This document shows, in pieces, positions 1,590 through 58,080 of a DNA stretch of 64,000 nt. Source of the stretch: Kofleriaceae bacterium. GTDB lineage: Bacteria > Myxococcota_A > Polyangia > Haliangiales > Haliangiaceae. How positions within the stretch are numbered: the first letter of the stretch is position 1; each line of letters opens with the position of its first letter. Location: the NCBI GenBank assembly GCA_048500355.1, contig JASNYD010000006.1, positions 352,211 to 416,210 on the forward strand, given 5' to 3'. A program made the translations under genes and the position numbers. Under the pieces are notes generated by a model that worked only from the letters and a program-made list of their open reading frames with translations, was not told the DNA's origin and searched no databases.

Positions 1590-4352
<2,763 letters not shown>

Positions 4353-6164: not shown

Positions 6165-7220
6165 ATGGCCGCCACCGCGACCGCCGTCGACACCTCGGGC
6201 CCGTCGATCGAGACGCTCGAGACCATCCTCAACGTGACCTACACGTGGGGCTACACCGAGACCCGCGAGAAGCTGCGCGACCTCTACCAGAAGGCGAAGC
6301 ACGGCCAGTGGATCCCCGAGGACGTGCTGCCGTGGCACCTCCAGCCCGATCTGACCCTGCCGATGGGCCCGGAGAACCTGCTGCCGCTCTACGGCTCGGA
6401 CATCTACGCGAAGCTGACCCCCCAGGAGAAGCAGCAGCTCAACCTCGAGACCTCGTCGTGGACGCTGTCGCAGTTCCTGCATGGCGAGCAGGGCGCGCTC
6501 CTGGCCACGGCCCAGCTCGTCGACTCGGTGCAGGACCTCGACTCCAAGCTCTACGGCGCGACCCAGGTCGTCGACGAGGCCCGCCACGTCGACGTCTACA
6601 ACCGCTACCTGCACGAGAAGATCGGCGTGTCGTACCCGTGCAACCCGCACCTGCGCACGCTCCTCGACATGGTGCTCAAGGACTCGCGCTGGGACATGAA
6701 GTTCCTGGGCATGCAGATCATGGTCGAGGGCCTGGCCCTGGCCGCGTTCGGGATGATCCGGGCCAACACCCAGGAGCCGCTGCTGCGCGACCTGACCGCC
6801 TACGTCATGGGCGACGAGGCTCGCCACGTCGCGTTCGGCGTGCTGTCGCTGCGCGACTACTACAAGGAGCAGCCCGAGAAGGTCCGGGCCGAGCGCGAGG
6901 ACTTCGTCTACGAGGCCGCGCGCCTCATGCGCGACCGGTTCCTGTTCCAGGAGGTCTGGGAGAAGATGGGCCTGCCGGTCAAGGAGTGCATGGCCATCGC
7001 CCTCGACAACCAGGGCCAGATCCTCTTCCGCCAGCTCCTCTTCGCCAAGATCGTCCCTGCCATCAAGAAGATGGACCTGCTCTCCGACCGCCAGCGCGCC
7101 CGCTTCGCCGACCTCGGCATCCTCCAGTTCGAGCACGCCCCCGACCCGTTCGCCGACCTCGAGCGCGAGGAGGCCGACCTCAAGCGCCGCCGCCGCGACA
7201 CCGAGCAGCCGCAGGCCTGA
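6165..7220 (+). CDS. Ferritin-like diiron protein (AurF/diiron-oxygenase-like)
   Basis: It carries paired E..H / DEARH motifs (DEARHVDVY, GDEARHVAFG) typical of diiron carboxylate proteins. It is 351 aa with a good ribosome-binding site. Confidence 0.65.
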   Translation: MAATATAVDTSGPSIETLETILNVTYTWGYTETREKLRDLYQKAKHGQWIPEDVLPWHLQPDLTLPMGPENLLPLYGSDIYAKLTPQEKQQLNLETSSWTLSQFLHGEQGALLATAQLVDSVQDLDSKLYGATQVVDEARHVDVYNRYLHEKIGVSYPCNPHLRTLLDMVLKDSRWDMKFLGMQIMVEGLALAAFGMIRANTQEPLLRDLTAYVMGDEARHVAFGVLSLRDYYKEQPEKVRAEREDFVYEAARLMRDRFLFQEVWEKMGLPVKECMAIALDNQGQILFRQLLFAKIVPAIKKMDLLSDRQRARFADLGILQFEHAPDPFADLEREEADLKRRRRDTEQPQA

Positions 7221-7223
7221 GCC

Positions 7224-7462
7224 GGGGACAGGATCCGGGGTCTCAACACCCTGACATCGCCAGCGTTTTCAGGGGCGTTGCGTTTCGGTCCGCGGACCCG
7301 CGCGCTACGTCGGCGGGCGCGCTCGCACAACATCGCGAGACGCCGTGGTTCGGTCGCGCCGGGCCGCGGCGAGCGAGCCGGGCGACAACCACCCGGAACG
7401 CAGCGGGCCCCAGAACTACAAGCATCCTGGTGGGTTGCGACCCCGGATCCTGTCCCCATTCG
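7224..7462. repeat. ~240-bp element bounded by 24-bp terminal inverted repeats (MITE-like or long hairpin RNA)
   Basis: GGGGACAGGATCCGGGGTCTCAAC at 7224-7247 is the reverse complement of 7439-7462 with 1 mismatch. It starts 3 bp after the diiron-gene stop and sits in a convergent intergenic region. Confidence 0.4.
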
Positions 7463-7531
7463 ATCGGTCGCGCCGTCGGGCTTCTTGGTCTCGAGTGGGT
7501 GGGCCGGGATCCGGAGCTTCCGCGGCCTCGC

Positions 7532-8988
<1,457 letters not shown>

Positions 8989-8992
<4 letters not shown>

Positions 8993-17419: not shown

Positions 17420-18819
<1,400 letters not shown>

Positions 18820-25481: not shown

Positions 25482-26633
25482 GTGTTGACCGCGAAGCCCT
25501 CGTACCACGTGGTCCTCCTGCCCGGCGACGGCATCGGCGTCGAGGTCACCGCCGACGCCCGCGCCCTGCTCGAGGCGCTGGGCCCGCGCCTCGGCGTCGG
25601 CTTCGCCCTCGACGAGATCCCGTGCGGCGGCCTGTACTACCAGCAGCACGGGCGCCGCGACTGGCCCGAGGGCGCCGAGCAGCGCTGCCACGACGCCGAC
25701 GTCGTCCTGCTGGGCGCAGTGGGCTGGAACGGGCCCGACGGCCAGCCGGTGACGATGAGCAACGGCAAGATGGCGGGCTGGTCGCCGGTGATCGGCAACC
25801 GCGTCCGCCTCGGCCTCTACGCCAACGTCCGCCCCATCCGCCTGCTCAAGGGCGTCAAGCACGGCCTGTCGGGCCGCTTCGCCCAGGTCTGGGAGCCGGG
25901 CATGGTCGACATGATCATGGTCCGCGAGAACACCGAGGGCCTGTACAGCGGCATCGGCGGCGTCGCCGGCGACGCCGCCATCGACACCCGCGTCATCACC
26001 CGGGCCGCCTCGCGGCGCGTGATCCGCAAGGCGTTCGAGCTCAGCCGCGGCCGCGGCACCGGCGCCCCGGTCGACGGCAAGAAGCGCGTCACCTGCGTGG
26101 TCAAGCACAACGTCCTCCACGGCTGCAAGCTGTTCGCCGAGGTCTTCCACGAGGTCGGCAAGGACTTCCCCGACATCGAGAAGGACGTCGCCATCGTCGA
26201 CTCGTTCGCGATGTTCCTCCTGACCCGGCCCGAGCACTACGACGTCGTCGTCACCACCAACATGTTCGGTGACATCCTCACCGACCTGGGCTCGGTGCTG
26301 CAGGGCGGCATGGGGATGGCGGTCGGTTGCAACGTCGGCGACGACCACGCGATGTTCGAGCCCATCCACGGCTCGGCGCCGCCCCTGGCCGGCCGCGACC
26401 TCGCCAACCCGCTGGCGATGCTGCTGGCCACCGCCGAGGCCCTGCTGTGGCTGGGCCGCCGCCGCGGCGACGAGCGGCTGATCAAGGGCGGGCGCGCGAT
26501 CGACGACGCGGTCGCCGCGATCATCGCCCGCGGCAAGCCGCTCACGACGGACCTGGTCGGCGCCGAGCGCGGCGCGCCGCGATCGGTGGTCGCCGCCGCG
26601 GTGCGCGACGAGGCGCTGGCCCGCCTGGCCTGA
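25482..26633 (+). CDS. Isocitrate/isopropylmalate dehydrogenase family protein (3-IPM/tartrate-DH-like)
   Basis: It has the LLPGDGIG substrate loop, [21 protein letters not shown], and the full-length fold. Confidence 0.8.
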
Positions 26634-27098
26634 GGCCGAGGCCGACGCCGAATCCGAGGCCGAGGCCCGGATCCGAGGCCGAATCCGAATCCGAATCCGA
26701 ATCCGAGGCCGAATCCGAATCCGAGGCCGAATCCGAATCCGAGGCCGAATCCGAATCCGAGGCCGAATCCGAATCCGAATCCGAACCCGAGGCCGAATCC
26801 GAACCCGAGGCCGAACCCGAGGCCGAATCCGAATCCGAATCCGAATCCGAGGCCGAATCCGAATCCGAATCCGAGGCCGAATCCGAATCCGAGGCCGAAT
26901 CCGAATCCGAGGCCGAATCCGAATCCGAGACCGAATCCGAGGCCGAACCCGAATCCGAATCCGAGACCGAGCCCGAGGCCGAATCCGAATCCGAGGCCGA
27001 ATCCGAATCCGAGGCCGAACCCGAGGCCGAATCCGAACCCGAGGCCGAACCCGAGGCCGAATCCAAGGCCGAATCCGAATCCGAGGCCGAATCCGAGG
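26634..27098. repeat. Intergenic array of ~77 imperfect hexanucleotide repeats (CCGANN)n
   Basis: The units are GAATCC/GAGGCC/GAACCC/GAGACC with a strict 6-bp period. The array fills the whole gap between two convergent genes. Confidence 0.85.
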
Positions 27099-27109
27099 CC
27101 GGAGGCCGG

Positions 27110-27960
27110 TCAGGGCGTCTCGAGCGGCGGCGCGGGCTCGAGGACGACCGGGACGGCGGGGGTGCCGCGCATGACGCGGGTGACGCCGCCGTCGCGGTAG
27201 CCGGCGCGCGCGGCCACGGGCTCGTCGGCGATGACGCCGGTGACCCGCACCACCTGGCCGACGGCGACGTCCTCGACGTGGAGGACGCCACCCAGCCGCC
27301 AGGACGCCGGCACGCCGAGCGCGGCGAGGCGCGGCTCGGCGCCGGTGACCTCCGGCGTGCCGAGGACGCGGTACTTGACCAGCGGCGGCGCGAGGCGGAT
27401 CACGCCGGTCACGACCACGTCGCCGCCGGGCGCCGCGACGACGAACGGCGCGACCGCGGACGCGCGCAGGAAGATCCCACCGACCCAGCGCACGCCGAGC
27501 TCGGCGGCGACGCTGGTCCCACCGTCCCACGGCCGGCGCACCGGGGCGTGGAGCGGATGCGCCGGCCCGATCGCGACGCTCGCCGTCGGCGCCGGCTGCG
27601 GGCGGCGCTCGACGATCGCGGCGATCGGCTGCTCGGCGCGGACGCGGCGGCGGCGGACGGCCTGCACGCCGGCGGCGCCCAGGGTCACCAGCGAGACCGG
27701 CATCAGGAACGGGATGACGATGCTGCCGCCGGCGAGCAGCGCGGTGATCATCCACATGTCGCGCTCCCCGCCCAGCTTCATGTCCGGGTAGGACATCAGC
27801 TCACGCAGGCCCGCCATCGGCGCGACCATGCCGGCGCCACACTCGACGCAGTCGCGGGTCGGAGGCTGGACCAGCCGACAGCCGAGGCAGCAGTGGCCGT
27901 GGCGCATCGCCGGCGTCGCCTCCTCACCCCTGGCGCCGTCGCGACCCATGCCGCCCGAGG

Positions 27961-46639: not shown

Positions 46640-48918
46640 TCAGCGCTTGCGCCGCAGCTTGACGTCGACCTTGTGGCCGTCGCGATCGGGATAGACGCGC
46701 TGGGTGGCGGTCAGGCCGCGGCGGGCGAGGACGAGCGACGTGGTCTCGAAGCCGGGGAGCGCGATCGTCGCCGGCGTCTTGCCGACCACGACGTCGCCGA
46801 TGGTCACCGTCGCGCCCGACGGCCGCGACGTCACCTTCACCTCGAAGACCGGCCGCTCGAGCCGCACCTCGAGCGCGGCCGCCCCCGCCGCGACCTGGCG
46901 GGTGACCGGCTGGTAGCGGTCGCGCCGGAACGTGACCTCGTAGGGCGTGCACGGGCCGTCGTAGGTGAACGGGGTCTCGCCGAGGATCTGGCCGTCGCGC
47001 ACGACCTGCACCGCCTCGGGGCTCGACGACAGCGCCACCGCGCAGGTGCCGGAGGCGGGCGGGGGTGAGGCGCCGGGCGCGATCGGGGGCGGCTCCGGCG
47101 GCGACTCGACCGCTGGCGGCGGGGTCGTGGCCGCGGCCGGCTCCACCGCGCCGCCCGGCGCGCCGGCGCGCGGCGATCCGCCGGGCGCGGCGGGGGCCGA
47201 CGCGCCGCTCGCCGCCGGCGCGGCGCTGGCCGCGGGCGGACGGCCCGCGGCGCCGCCATCACCGCCGCCGCCGCGCGCGGCGATGACGACCATGACCGCC
47301 ACGCCGATCACGATGAGGCCGGAGGTGACCGCGATGACCGGCCAGCGCCGGCGCGCCGCCGGGCCGCCGAGCTGGATCATCTCGGTCATGTCGTCGTCGC
47401 GATCGACGAGCTCGGGCGCCGACCACGCCGGAGCCGCCGATGACGGGTAGGGCCTCGGGTAGTACGGCGCGCCAGCCGCGACCGGCGCCATCGCGGCTGC
47501 GGGCGGCGGCGCCATCGCCGCCATGGGCGGCGGCGCCATCGCCGCCACGGGCGGCGGCGCCATCGACGCCACGGGCGGCGGCGCCATCGCGGCCACGGGC
47601 GGCGGCGCCATCGCCGCCACGGGCGGCGGCGCCATCGCCGCCACGGGCGGCGGCGCCATCGCCGCCATGGGCGGCGGCGCCATCGCCGCCACGGGCGGCG
47701 GCGCCATCGACCATCCCGGCGACGACGCCGGCGGCGGCGGCGACGGCGGGACGACGATCGGCACGGCCCGCGGCGGGAGCGTGGTCGGCAGCGGCTCCGT
47801 CGCGTCCGCGGAGCCGACCTCCGCGACCGCCTCGGGCAGCGCGACGACCACGTCGGTCGGGAGGTCGTCGCCGACGACGGTGACGGTGGGGACGATCGGC
47901 GCGGCCTCCACCGGACCCGACGGGACCGCGCTCATGCCGGCGGGCGCCGCGGTCGGCACCGTCGGGCCGAGGTCGAGCGCGCCCGGCGCGCCGTGCGAGG
48001 TCGACGCCGCCGCGGCGATCGCGTGCATCACCGCGCCGCGCGTCGGCTGGGTCGGACCGGTCTCGTGCTCGACGCCGTGGCGCGGCACCGGCACGCTGTC
48101 GGTGGGCACCCCCGGCGGCGTCCCCGCCGCCACGACCGCCGACGAGGACGCGCCGCGCGTCGGCGTCGACCGGGCCGGCGTCGAGCTCGCGGGCGCCGCC
48201 CCGGTCCCACCTGGACGCGGTCGCGCGGGCGCCGGCATCGCGGCCGGCGCGCCCGCCACCGACGGTGGGGCCGGACCCACGACCGGGATGCCCATGAGGG
48301 TGCGCTGCTGCTCGCGGCGCGCGCGGCCGTCCGCCGTCATCGGGGCCGCGCCGGCGCCCACCGCGGCGCCAGGGACCGGAACGGGGAGCGGCGCCTGCCG
48401 GATCGTCGGCGGCGCCGGCTCGCGCGCGGAGCCGGGCATGCGCACGGTGGCGAGGTCGGGCCGCGCCGCGCCGGCGGGCGCCATCGCCTCGACCGCGCAG
48501 GTCGCCGCCGCGGCGTCGACCGCGCCGCCCTGGGCGACGCCGATCGCGGCCCCCAGCGGCACGAGGTGGCGCGGCACCGCCGGCGGCACCGCCGCCGCGG
48601 CGTGCTCCACCATGTGAGCGAGCAGGCCCTTGCCGCGGGCGTCGAGGCGGAGGTAGCGCACGTCGATCGTCGCGCCGGCCGGCGCGCCGGCCGCCCCCGC
48701 CGTCGCGCCCCCCACGCTCACCTCGGCCTCGCCATCGAGCACCGCCACCCGCGACGCGAGGGTCACCACGACCCGCCCGCGCCCGCTCGCCACGGGCGCA
48801 CCCGTGACCGGGATCGCGGTCAGGCCCTCGGGCCCGGCCAGGGTGCGGAACACCCGGATCAGGTCCTCGACCGTCGCGCACCGGCTGACCAGGCGCCACG
48901 CGGTTCCGTTCGCCACGA
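46640..48918 (-). CDS. Pro/Ala-rich membrane protein with C-terminal PEGA domains and internal (MAPPPVAA)n repeats
   Basis: It has a TM helix (WPVIAVTSGLIVIGVAVMVVIAA) and two C-terminal PEGA-like modules. The start is uncertain (a GTG near 48918 is proposed). The longest ORF reaches 49201 and overlaps the divergent gene. Confidence 0.55.
47483..47710. repeat. In-frame 24-bp tandem repeat (~9.5 copies) encoding MAPPPVAA
   Basis: The unit is GGCGGCGGCGCCATCGCCGCCACG on the top strand and it lies inside the coding sequence. Confidence 0.8.
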
Positions 48919-51104: not shown

Positions 51105-51152
51105 CCGACGACGCTGACCGACGACGCCGACCGAAGACGAGCGCCCGGTCAG

Positions 51153-51593
51153 ATCCGGGCTCGGGTTCGGGCTCGGGGCTGCATGACCCGCTCACCCTGA
51201 GCGGAGCCCCGAAGGGGCGGAGTCGAAGGGGCTCGGGTTCGGATTCGGATTCGGGTTCGGATTCGGGTTCGGGTTCGGGTTCGGGTTCGGATTCGGGTTC
51301 GGGTTCGGATTCGGGTTCGGATTCGGGTTCGGGTTCGGGGCTGCATGACCCGCTCACCCTGAGCGGAGCCCCGAAGGGGCGGAGTCGAAGGGGCTCGGGG
51401 CTGCATGACCCGCTCACCCTGAGCGGAGCCCCGAAGGGGCGGAGTCGAAGGGGCTCGGGGCTGCATGACCCGCTCACCCTGAGCGGAGCCCCGAAGGGGC
51501 GGAGTCGAAGGGGCTCGGGGCTGCATGACCCGCTCACCCTGAGCGGAGCCCCGAAGGGGCGGAGTCGAAGGGGCTCGGATCCGGAGCCGGGCT
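51153..51593. repeat. Composite intergenic repeat: five copies of a 60-bp double-hairpin unit plus hexanucleotide (NNTCGG)n arrays
   Basis: The 60-bp unit GGCTGCATGACCCGCTCACCCTGAGCGGAGCCCCGAAGGGGCGGAGTCGAAGGGGCTCGG lies at 51177-51236 and in four perfect tandem copies at 51339-51578. The copies are separated and flanked by 6-bp repeats that are the reverse complement of the 26634 family. Confidence 0.85.
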
Positions 51594-52436
51594 TCAGAAC
51601 GAGCCGCCGAGGACGACGGTGGCGCCGCCGGCCGCGGGCACGACGGCGAGCGACGGCTCGCGACCGCGGTCGAAGGTCAGGTAGCGGACGACGCCACCGG
51701 CGAGGAGCGCGCCGCCGACGCCGGCGACGATCACCGACGTCAGCCGCAGCGAGCGGGCGCGATCCTCGGCCGCGAGGTAGGCGTCGTAGCTCGTCCCCGC
51801 GCACACCGGATCACCGCACTGGGCGGCGCGCGCGCGGGTGTAGAGCACGATCGCCGCGACCTCGGCGACGACGCCGGCGCCCACCAGCGACATGCCGACG
51901 ACGTCGCGATGGAAGCGGCGGGCCCCGGCGTCCGCTGGCGGCATGGTGATCGCGCCGCCCGCGGCCGGACCCCGGACGTCGTCACCGCCCGGCGCGGAGG
52001 CGCCGTCACCGCCGCCGGCGCGTGCGTGCTCGGCGTCGAGGATCGCCTGGCAGGCGTCGACCTCGGCCTGCGCCGCCTCCGCCGCCCTGGGCCCCGGCTT
52101 GCTCTCGAGGAAGCGGGTGAAGTGCTCGATCGCGAGCCGGCAGGCCTTGCGCTCGGCGTGGAGGCGACCGATGACGTAGAGCAGGTCGGGGCGGCCGGTC
52201 TCGGCGTGCGCGGCCACGAACTCGCGCAGCGCGGTGTCGAGGTCGCCGGCCTCGTAGGCGGCGGTGGCGGCGGCCTCGCGGTCGGCCGGCTGGGCGCGCG
52301 CCGGCGTGGCGGAGCTCGCGAGCGCGGCCGTCAGGACGGTCGCCGCGACGACCGCGACCCCCGCGCGCGGCGTGGCCGGATCGTCGACGCGCGGCGCGAC
52401 GGCGGGCGGTGAGCGGCGAGCGACCGGGCGGGACAT
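51594..52436 (-). CDS. Hypothetical secreted/membrane protein
   Basis: It has a signal-like N-terminus and a C-terminal TM helix. The start was chosen at the Met that avoids overlap with the upstream kinase. Confidence 0.4.
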
Positions 52437-57323: not shown

Positions 57324-57639
57324 GCGCGGCGGCGAGCCCCGCGCGCCGCTCGGCCCCGCTACCACCGTGGTGGCGAGCGAGAGAGACGGCCCTTCGACAC
57401 GCCCTCGCTGGCGCGCGGGCGGCTCCCGGCGAACGGCGCCGGCAAGCACTCGACATCACTCGCGCGACGGCCGCGGCTTGTCGGCCTTCGACACGCCCTC
57501 GCTGACGCTCGGGCGGCTCAGGCCGACCGGATAGTGGGCTCGCCGTTCGTTTCCCGCAGTCTCCGACCGCGGTCGGTGAAGAGCTCAGGGCGACCGGGGG
57601 CGAAATGGGTCCGTCCTTGCTCGATGAGACCCCGGATCC

Positions 57640-58080
<441 letters not shown>

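Follow-up and report, generated by a model that had tools for sequence, protein, structure and literature searches.

What is the long inverted repeat that fills the gap between two convergent genes of a Kofleriaceae bacterium, and how did it come to lie there? In an earlier reading of a 64,000-nucleotide stretch of this genome (hereafter the window), made from the sequence only, the repeat was described as a non-autonomous element resembling a miniature inverted-repeat transposable element (MITE), with a structured RNA or a terminator shared by the two genes offered as alternatives. The gap is bounded, as that reading had it, by genes for a diiron protein and a sigma-54 regulator. The first encodes an AurF-like diiron (ferritin-like) protein (6165-7220, plus strand; Pfam PF11583, 351 aa) and the second, convergent with it, a sigma-54-dependent response regulator (7532-8992, minus strand; 486 aa as called in L001, an ENA contig that is identical to the window through this region). 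The AurF-like reading frame stops at TGA 7218-7220 and the repeat begins three nucleotides later, in agreement with its earlier placement right after the stop codon.

The left arm of the repeat, GGGGACAGGATCCGGGGTCTCAAC, occupies 7224-7247 on the plus strand, exactly as first given, and this 24-nt terminal arm is referred to here as the head. The right arm, which reads GGGGACAGGATCCGGGGTCGCAAC on the minus strand, repeats it in inverted orientation with a single mismatch (23 of 24 positions complementary), again as described, but its true place is 7434-7457, five nucleotides further left than the 7439-7462 originally reported. With the right arm so placed, the element extends from 7224 to 7457 (234 nt), its arms stand 186 nt apart (about 190 in the earlier estimate) and 74 nt separate it from the stop codon of the regulator. 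When up to three mismatches are allowed, the 24-mer occurs at these two places only in the 64-kb window, and it has no match in 100 dinucleotide-preserving shuffles. A second sigma-54 response-regulator paralogue is present at 17423-18799 of the window (plus strand); its protein is 42% identical to that of the 7532-8992 (minus-strand) regulator, and at the DNA level the two genes show 70% complementarity across 310 nt (7988-8297 and 18091-18400).

A dispersed family of paired units

Public genomes, represented by one genome per species, were searched with the 19-nt core GGGGACAGGATCCGGGGTC, which occurs exactly in 55 genome stretches, almost all of them from MAGs of Kofleriaceae, Haliangiales, Myxococcales or "Deltaproteobacteria". 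Individual MAGs carry up to ~17 core loci (~17 in SMAG_U6175, 12 in "PRO4", 11 in SMAG_U13657 and six in OTE_78). Three or four matches, including those in a Thermoanaerobaculia MAG and a Streptosporangiaceae MAG, consist of the core alone and are probably due to chance. At up to three mismatches most cores are paired, and 29 bracketed elements could be delimited, each with an exact GGGG start and CCCC end and with unrelated flanks, measuring either 142-301 nt or 820-849 nt. An alignment of 92 copies from many MAGs defines a repeated unit of ~65 nt, composed of a near-invariant 24-nt head, a variable segment in which GATC...GTTT recurs as a loose pattern, and a lineage-specific tail (CACCGCGAAAA, AACGCAAAAC or AACGTAAAA according to lineage, and GTTGCGTTTCGG in the window and PRO4). 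The head starts GGGGACAGGATCC and, read directly, contains neither GTAG nor CGTC. What is conserved and repeated is this ~65-nt unit at each end, to the exclusion of an interior of ~100 nt, and not just the 24-bp arm to which the repeat had initially been confined.

The window element is a heads-outward inverted doublet of two such units. The left unit (7224-7289, plus strand; nhmmer unit profile E 5.9e-14) comprises the head, a variable segment containing a local CCCTGA...TCAGGG hairpin and the tail GTTGCGTTTCGG, and the right unit (7392-7457, minus strand; E 8.7e-13) has the tail GCTGCGTTCCGG. Between them lies a spacer of 102 nt (7290-7391), which is 88% identical to that of an orthologous copy discussed below and unrelated to the spacers of other copies. 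Over the window, the unit profile gives significant matches at the two element ends only (E 6e-14 and 9e-13), and neither the 24-mer nor the profile detected further copies or degenerate units in these 64 kb. A weak profile match at 57620-57639 was considered as a further copy and rejected, as it sits in a low-complexity tandem repeat. Additional copies of the ends, for which the sequence-only reading had proposed a search, are numerous in a sister genome and in other MAGs, the element itself being the one copy in the window; the multi-copy, extragenic status of the family is read from the sister and related MAGs, the window's own genome being covered over 64 kb. Long low-complexity tandem repeats with periods of 6, 12, 18, 24 or 60 nt occupy 26583-27179, 47411-47818, 51109-51630 and 57566-58033 of the window; some are mutually reverse-complementary (e.g. 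51229-51339 and 57846-58033, 85-88%), and they are probably repetitive coding regions.

Across loci, 26 heads-outward inverted doublets and no heads-inward ones were counted, together with 23 singlets, six of which are the flanks of transposase genes (17 otherwise), and a few same-strand pairs or clusters. A singlet:doublet ratio below 2 is the criterion that has been applied to REPINs (PMC3116915), and the ratio here lies below that value whether or not the transposase flanks are included. The units avoid genes, high-GC3 open reading frames covering 20% of unit DNA against 67% of the surrounding DNA. Clusters of three to five units occur at L027:4017-4523, L052:5735-5989, L018:1926-2318 and L047:1207-1424, include same-strand tandem copies 67-137 nt apart (patterns ++---, ---, +--- and ++-) and resemble the ordered REPIN clusters or BIME arrays of other bacteria.

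Target-site duplications, which had been suggested as a check, do not accompany the family: 21 of 28 elements lack direct repeats at their flanks, and the distribution of such repeats is no better than that obtained with mismatched flanks. Three 4-nt flanking repeats consist of the palindrome GATC, which also precedes solo units in the same MAG and is therefore part of the unit and not a duplication. In PRO4, a ~20-nt motif, TTCCnnGCnCTTCCnCGCC (sometimes with two tandem CTTCCnCGCC), lies just outside one element end only (L020:3257-3276; flanks of L003, L017, L024, L025, L031, L032, L035, L053 and L055) and also adjoins the 5' end of the transposase-bearing element of that MAG; the window copy is without it. 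This motif may be a left-end target sequence like those of IS200/IS605 or an asymmetric part of the element. In the window, a degenerate head-like GGGCCGGGATCCGG (7501-7514), situated 44 nt to the right of the element and not significant by the unit profile, precedes CTTCCGCGGCC, a sequence similar to the flank motif of PRO4. The head-like stretch could be a decayed remnant or chance.

The interior of the elements is far less constrained than their ends. A conserved hairpin within each unit was rejected by column-pair analysis (maximum excess pairing 0.16) and by RNAalifold, which returned no consensus helix; a register-free comparison of each unit's own segments with chimeras gave a marginal difference in intra-unit folding (-3.6 against -3.1 kcal/mol, p = 0.036). 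Seven doublets of 225-245 nt from the window/PRO4 lineage keep a spacer length of 93-113 nt. Shared interiors were also sought in the window's subfamily and rejected, spacer identity between loci being that of the shuffled baseline with the orthologous copy as the sole exception, and the spacers have no excess of structure (z -0.8 to +0.7). Since the spacers are unrelated, no two sampled copies of the window lineage look like recent products of whole-doublet copying. Full-length identity between two doublets of another MAG reaches 81%, as would be expected if doublets were copied whole.

The coding partner of the family

The three elements of 820-849 nt (L053, L016 and L011), one per MAG, have the same ends as the small elements and contain a single open reading frame of 227-250 aa, with no second one. 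All three proteins pass the Pfam Y1_Tnp profile (29-33 bits against a cut-off of 23), and their sole NCBIfam match is REP_Tyr_transpos, the REP-associated tyrosine transposase (RAYT), at 45-49 bits, below the equivalog cut-off of 80. They are mutually 55-58% identical, and across 26 homologues H60/H62 of the HUH motif and Y120 (in LYNDANAxRAGLV) are invariant. A single-sequence search of the PDB with the transposase returned only a marginal IS200 match. When a profile of the homologues was used, the best match was 4ER8, E. coli TnpA-REP (E 0.0047), ahead of the IS200 TnpA 2EC2 (E 0.013), with the HUH and catalytic-tyrosine motifs both aligned. An AlphaFold model of the transposase (pLDDT 86.6) also has 4ER8 as its best Foldseek match (E 2.6e-7, target TM 0.75, 164 of 165 residues, 15% identity), with the TnpAs of IS608, IS200 and ISDra2 behind it (TM 0.54-0.68). 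As far as the predicted fold allows, the closest solved relative of the protein is thus E. coli TnpA-REP (RayT/YafM), the partner of REP/BIME elements (PMC3479197). Public annotation mostly names the gene "transposase", and JGI occasionally "REP-associated tyrosine transposase / RayT". With the family transposase as a tblastn query the window gave no match, which, for this type of transposase, agrees with the earlier remark that none is nearby.

Within its element the gene has a fixed polarity. The distance from the 5' end to the ATG is ~102-111 nt, and the reading frame runs 33-36 nt into the 3' unit before it stops (L053:4877-4943, L016:1474-1546 and L011:1269-1335), so that the lineage-specific unit tail is translated as the C-terminus (e.g. 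TTTTCGCGGTG = FSRW). Beyond the units, small and coding elements share no internal sequence. Further loci (L062-L070) have a Y1 gene that is likewise flanked by family units. At L062 the RAYT is 64% identical to that of PRO4 and its units (2901-2963 and 3658-3720) are diverged (GGGGACAGGCTCC...), with heads that read GGGGACAGGCTCCTATCCC... and GGGGACAGGCACCTCAGTC..., and this supports co-evolution of repeat and transposase. That MAGs with transposases only 55-58% identical to one another have one and the same head implies that this sequence is strongly constrained. The PRO4-type gene and its 64%-identical relative are found at one syntenic position, in the order peptidase M1, phosphodiesterase, RAYT and multihaem cytochrome c, and the phosphodiesterase/cytochrome slot is kept in every contig of these two lineages read from many samples; in the other two MAGs the genomic context of the gene is different. 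RAYTs have been described as single-copy, stably placed genes flanked by repeats that they are thought to disseminate (PMC5581495, PMC3116915). The Kofleriaceae locus apparently fits this pattern, with a stable place and a single copy, the latter as judged from fragmented MAGs.

The same facts could be read in another way, namely that the Y1 gene and its two flanking units form an active autonomous IS200-like insertion sequence instead of a domesticated single-copy RAYT, and that the small elements are MITEs derived from it by deletion. Such a reading draws on the exact ends and heads-outward polarity shared by coding and small elements, on a protein that falls below the RAYT equivalog cut-off and resembles IS200-type TnpAs too, and on the differing gene context in two MAGs, and it has room because copy number rests on fragmented MAGs. 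Members of the IS200/IS605 group have subterminal hairpins and no long terminal inverted repeats, and they carry a multi-copy tnpA, often with tnpB. The Kofleriaceae elements share with them, and with PATEs, the Y1 HUH fold and the lack of target-site duplication and, in PRO4, a conserved sequence at one end only that resembles a left-end target. They differ in their long terminal inverted repeats, in their single open reading frame and in what is apparently one transposase gene per genome, again as far as fragmented MAGs can tell. Given that the 55 head-containing loci yielded a single coding element for each of the three MAGs, that 64%-identical lineages retain one syntenic slot in all contigs read, and that small and coding elements have no internal sequence in common beyond the units, an IS200-like origin is improbable.

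The Y1 partner also bears on how far the MITE label reaches. As a description of a small, non-autonomous inverted-repeat element it holds, since the ends belong to a dispersed multi-copy family, a coding partner has the same ends and the gap lacks the element in relatives (see below). As a statement of kinship with DDE transposases it does not. A classical MITE, derived by deletion from an insertion sequence with a DDE transposase and mobilised by a cut-and-paste mechanism, would also be small, non-coding, multi-copy and non-autonomous, with terminal inverted repeats; that the element is one is nevertheless very hard to credit, as three quarters of the family elements (21/28) are without a flanking direct repeat, the 4-nt GATC cases belong to the unit, and wherever these ends bracket a gene, its product is a Y1 HUH protein and not a DDE transposase. 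For the same two reasons, the lack of target-site duplication and a Y1 HUH partner of RAYT type, the element is termed REPIN-like here. It is likely to be mobile but non-autonomous, the REPIN-like part of a RAYT system, and it belongs to a family of extragenic repeats dispersed in the Kofleriaceae.

The gap in relatives and a reversed copy

Four orthologous loci with AurF identities of 84-90% keep the AurF/sigma-54 arrangement and have no family unit in the gap; at one of them (L061) the two genes nearly abut. The element is therefore a lineage-specific insertion and not a conserved feature of the gene pair. The gap as a whole is a variable region. In place of the element, it holds a called 101-aa ORF with a DUF1963 match at L059:4094-4399 and a called 68-aa ORF without a match at L060:4060-4266.

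A closer relative, L020 from the MAG PRO4, represents the same locus, with AurF 98.9%, regulator 98.6% and flanking DNA 97.6-98.2% identical to the window. It carries the same 234-nt element, 93.2% identical, as the reverse complement only, while the flanking genes keep their orientation. The junctions of the two copies coincide, on the left after ...CCTGAGCC and on the right before ATTCG.... On the left L020 has 20 extra nucleotides, TTTCCGCCCACTTCCCCGCC, bounded by GCC microhomology, so that its element is shifted 20 nt from the AurF stop codon, and on the right it has two; the rest of the right-hand spacer between element and regulator is largely unalignable between the two genomes. Comparison of the two orthologous copies gives 4 differences in 132 unit positions and 12 in the 102 of the spacer (Fisher p = 0.016). 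The reversal is unlikely to be an artefact of assembly, to judge from the k-mers of 127 and 141 given in the contig names, which exceed the 24-nt repeat. It may have arisen either by inversion in situ between the 24-bp heads or by excision and re-insertion at the same point, and both would account for what is seen.

No empty site at ~98% identity was found, L020 being the sole stretch that overlaps the window. L072, which has two differences from the window element, was considered as a third lineage that might polarise the inversion and was set aside, since it belongs to the window's own lineage. Metagenome scans gave no match for the centre of the element and, for the head with the subfamily tail, one solo unit, orthologous to L002; no transposition intermediate was found in them.

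The reversed copy is a concrete, testable case of recent element rearrangement at an orthologous site. It also invites a more speculative reading, in which the doublets are long-lived, selectively maintained invertible DNA modules and not mere passengers. The grounds for this are the identity of the head across genera with ~55%-identical RAYTs and the in-place flip at ~98% identity. The proposal is a long shot; if true, in-situ inversion between convergent genes, driven by the RAYT or by recombination between heads, would amount to an activity not described before and might serve as a regulatory switch.

The reversal and the gaps without the element likewise bear on the two roles, as RNA and as terminator, that had been raised at the outset. 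The element folds far better than its shuffles, as RNA (z -5.65 and -4.75 for the two strands) and as single-stranded DNA (z -5.55), because its ends pair: the two units form a head stem of 23 bp and a tail stem of ~13 bp. This excess of folding on both strands would suit a gene for a structured non-coding RNA with a long closing stem. However, Rfam 15 gave no match at the gathering score in the whole window and none at E <= 10 in 7000-7700, a promoter scan found no sigma-70-like site at the element, and the interior is unstructured, unrelated between family members and without fixed-register covariation. As the element is, moreover, reversed at an orthologous locus whose flanking genes keep their orientation, an RNA gene can be given almost no credence.

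A role for the element in the service of its host has more to commend it and would be compatible with a mobile origin. As a cis element it would now act as a bidirectional terminator, a stabiliser of mRNA 3' ends or a translation attenuator, roles that REPs of E. coli are reported to have. It lies three nucleotides past a stop codon, between convergent genes, its 23-bp stem is very stable on either strand, and its units are more conserved than its spacer between the orthologous copies. That REPs can play a part in termination and in the stability of mRNA is noted in PMC3733652. Against this stand the lack of a T/U tract, the relatives with the same gene pair and no element, including the one in which the genes abut, and the sister genome, where the element is reversed and 20 nt further from the stop codon. 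A scan for intrinsic terminators (GC-rich stem with T-run) found no site on either strand of 6900-7800, so the shared terminator of the sequence-only reading gains no support, for want of a T-tract. A present host function is thus possible and rather doubtful, and a secondary terminator-like effect may exist.

Relation to REPIN-RAYT systems

REPIN-RAYT systems consist of REP doublets that form hairpins and of REP-associated tyrosine transposases (Bertels & Rainey 2011, PMC3116915; Bertels et al. 2017, PMC5581495). The Kofleriaceae family resembles them in its inverted doublets outside genes, its many copies, the excess of doublets over singlets and the occasional ordered clusters. In both, copies of the repeat flank a Y1 HUH gene (in the Kofleriaceae apparently in a stable place), the transposase diverges in step with its repeat, and the spacer is less conserved than the ends and conserved in length. 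The spacers of REPINs, although less conserved and of critical length, have hairpin capacity and compensatory changes (Bertels & Rainey, PMC3116915), neither of which is seen in the Kofleriaceae spacers. The Kofleriaceae doublet is also longer (142-301 nt, 234 in the window, against roughly 100), it is built of ~65-nt units with a non-palindromic 24-nt head instead of palindromic REPs of 20-40 nt, and its transposase, at 227-250 aa, has an extra C-terminal region and scores under the NCBIfam RAYT cut-off.

The departure from classical REPs is wider still. These have a GTAG or CGTC tag at one end, according to PMC3733652, and are expected to be imperfect palindromes of 20-40 nt, whereas the Kofleriaceae unit has no such tag and no stem-loop of its own over its ~65 nt. 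The comparison with E. coli TnpA-REP is similarly mixed, with the best structural and profile match and aligned HUH and tyrosine motifs on one side and 15% identity on the other. The REPs of E. coli are reportedly short hairpins recognised together with the tetranucleotide GTAG, and neither a short hairpin nor this tag is evident in the Kofleriaceae units. The kind of system, REPIN/RAYT, is already known; the departures from it lie in a unit that is long and non-palindromic, a long spacer without conservation, a larger transposase and Myxococcota as the host phylum.

IS200/IS605 TnpA and E. coli TnpA-REP suggest, by analogy, a path by which the element may have reached its present site. On single-stranded DNA, the presumed intermediate, the two units would pair through the 23-bp head stem and the ~13-bp tail stem. 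The RAYT, acting in trans from a single chromosomal locus, would recognise this structure and catalyse cleavage at the sharply defined GGGG/CCCC ends, and the doublet would be moved or copied without duplication of the target. The window copy would have entered the AurF/sigma-54 gap recently in the history of its lineage, would subsequently have been reversed in one of the two sister lineages and may be mobile at present.

Studies of REPIN-RAYT systems, with their short palindromic REPs, have been almost confined to the Gammaproteobacteria and a small number of other groups. Within the literature collection searched, no report deals with RAYTs of Myxococcota or Kofleriaceae, although this does not prove their absence. 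The Kofleriaceae family extends the REPIN-RAYT principle to the Myxococcota and bears on the question of what a RAYT recognises. It accounts for many unannotated intergenic inverted repeats in Kofleriaceae MAGs and explains the "transposase" genes found on short contigs of these MAGs, as such repeats break assemblies.
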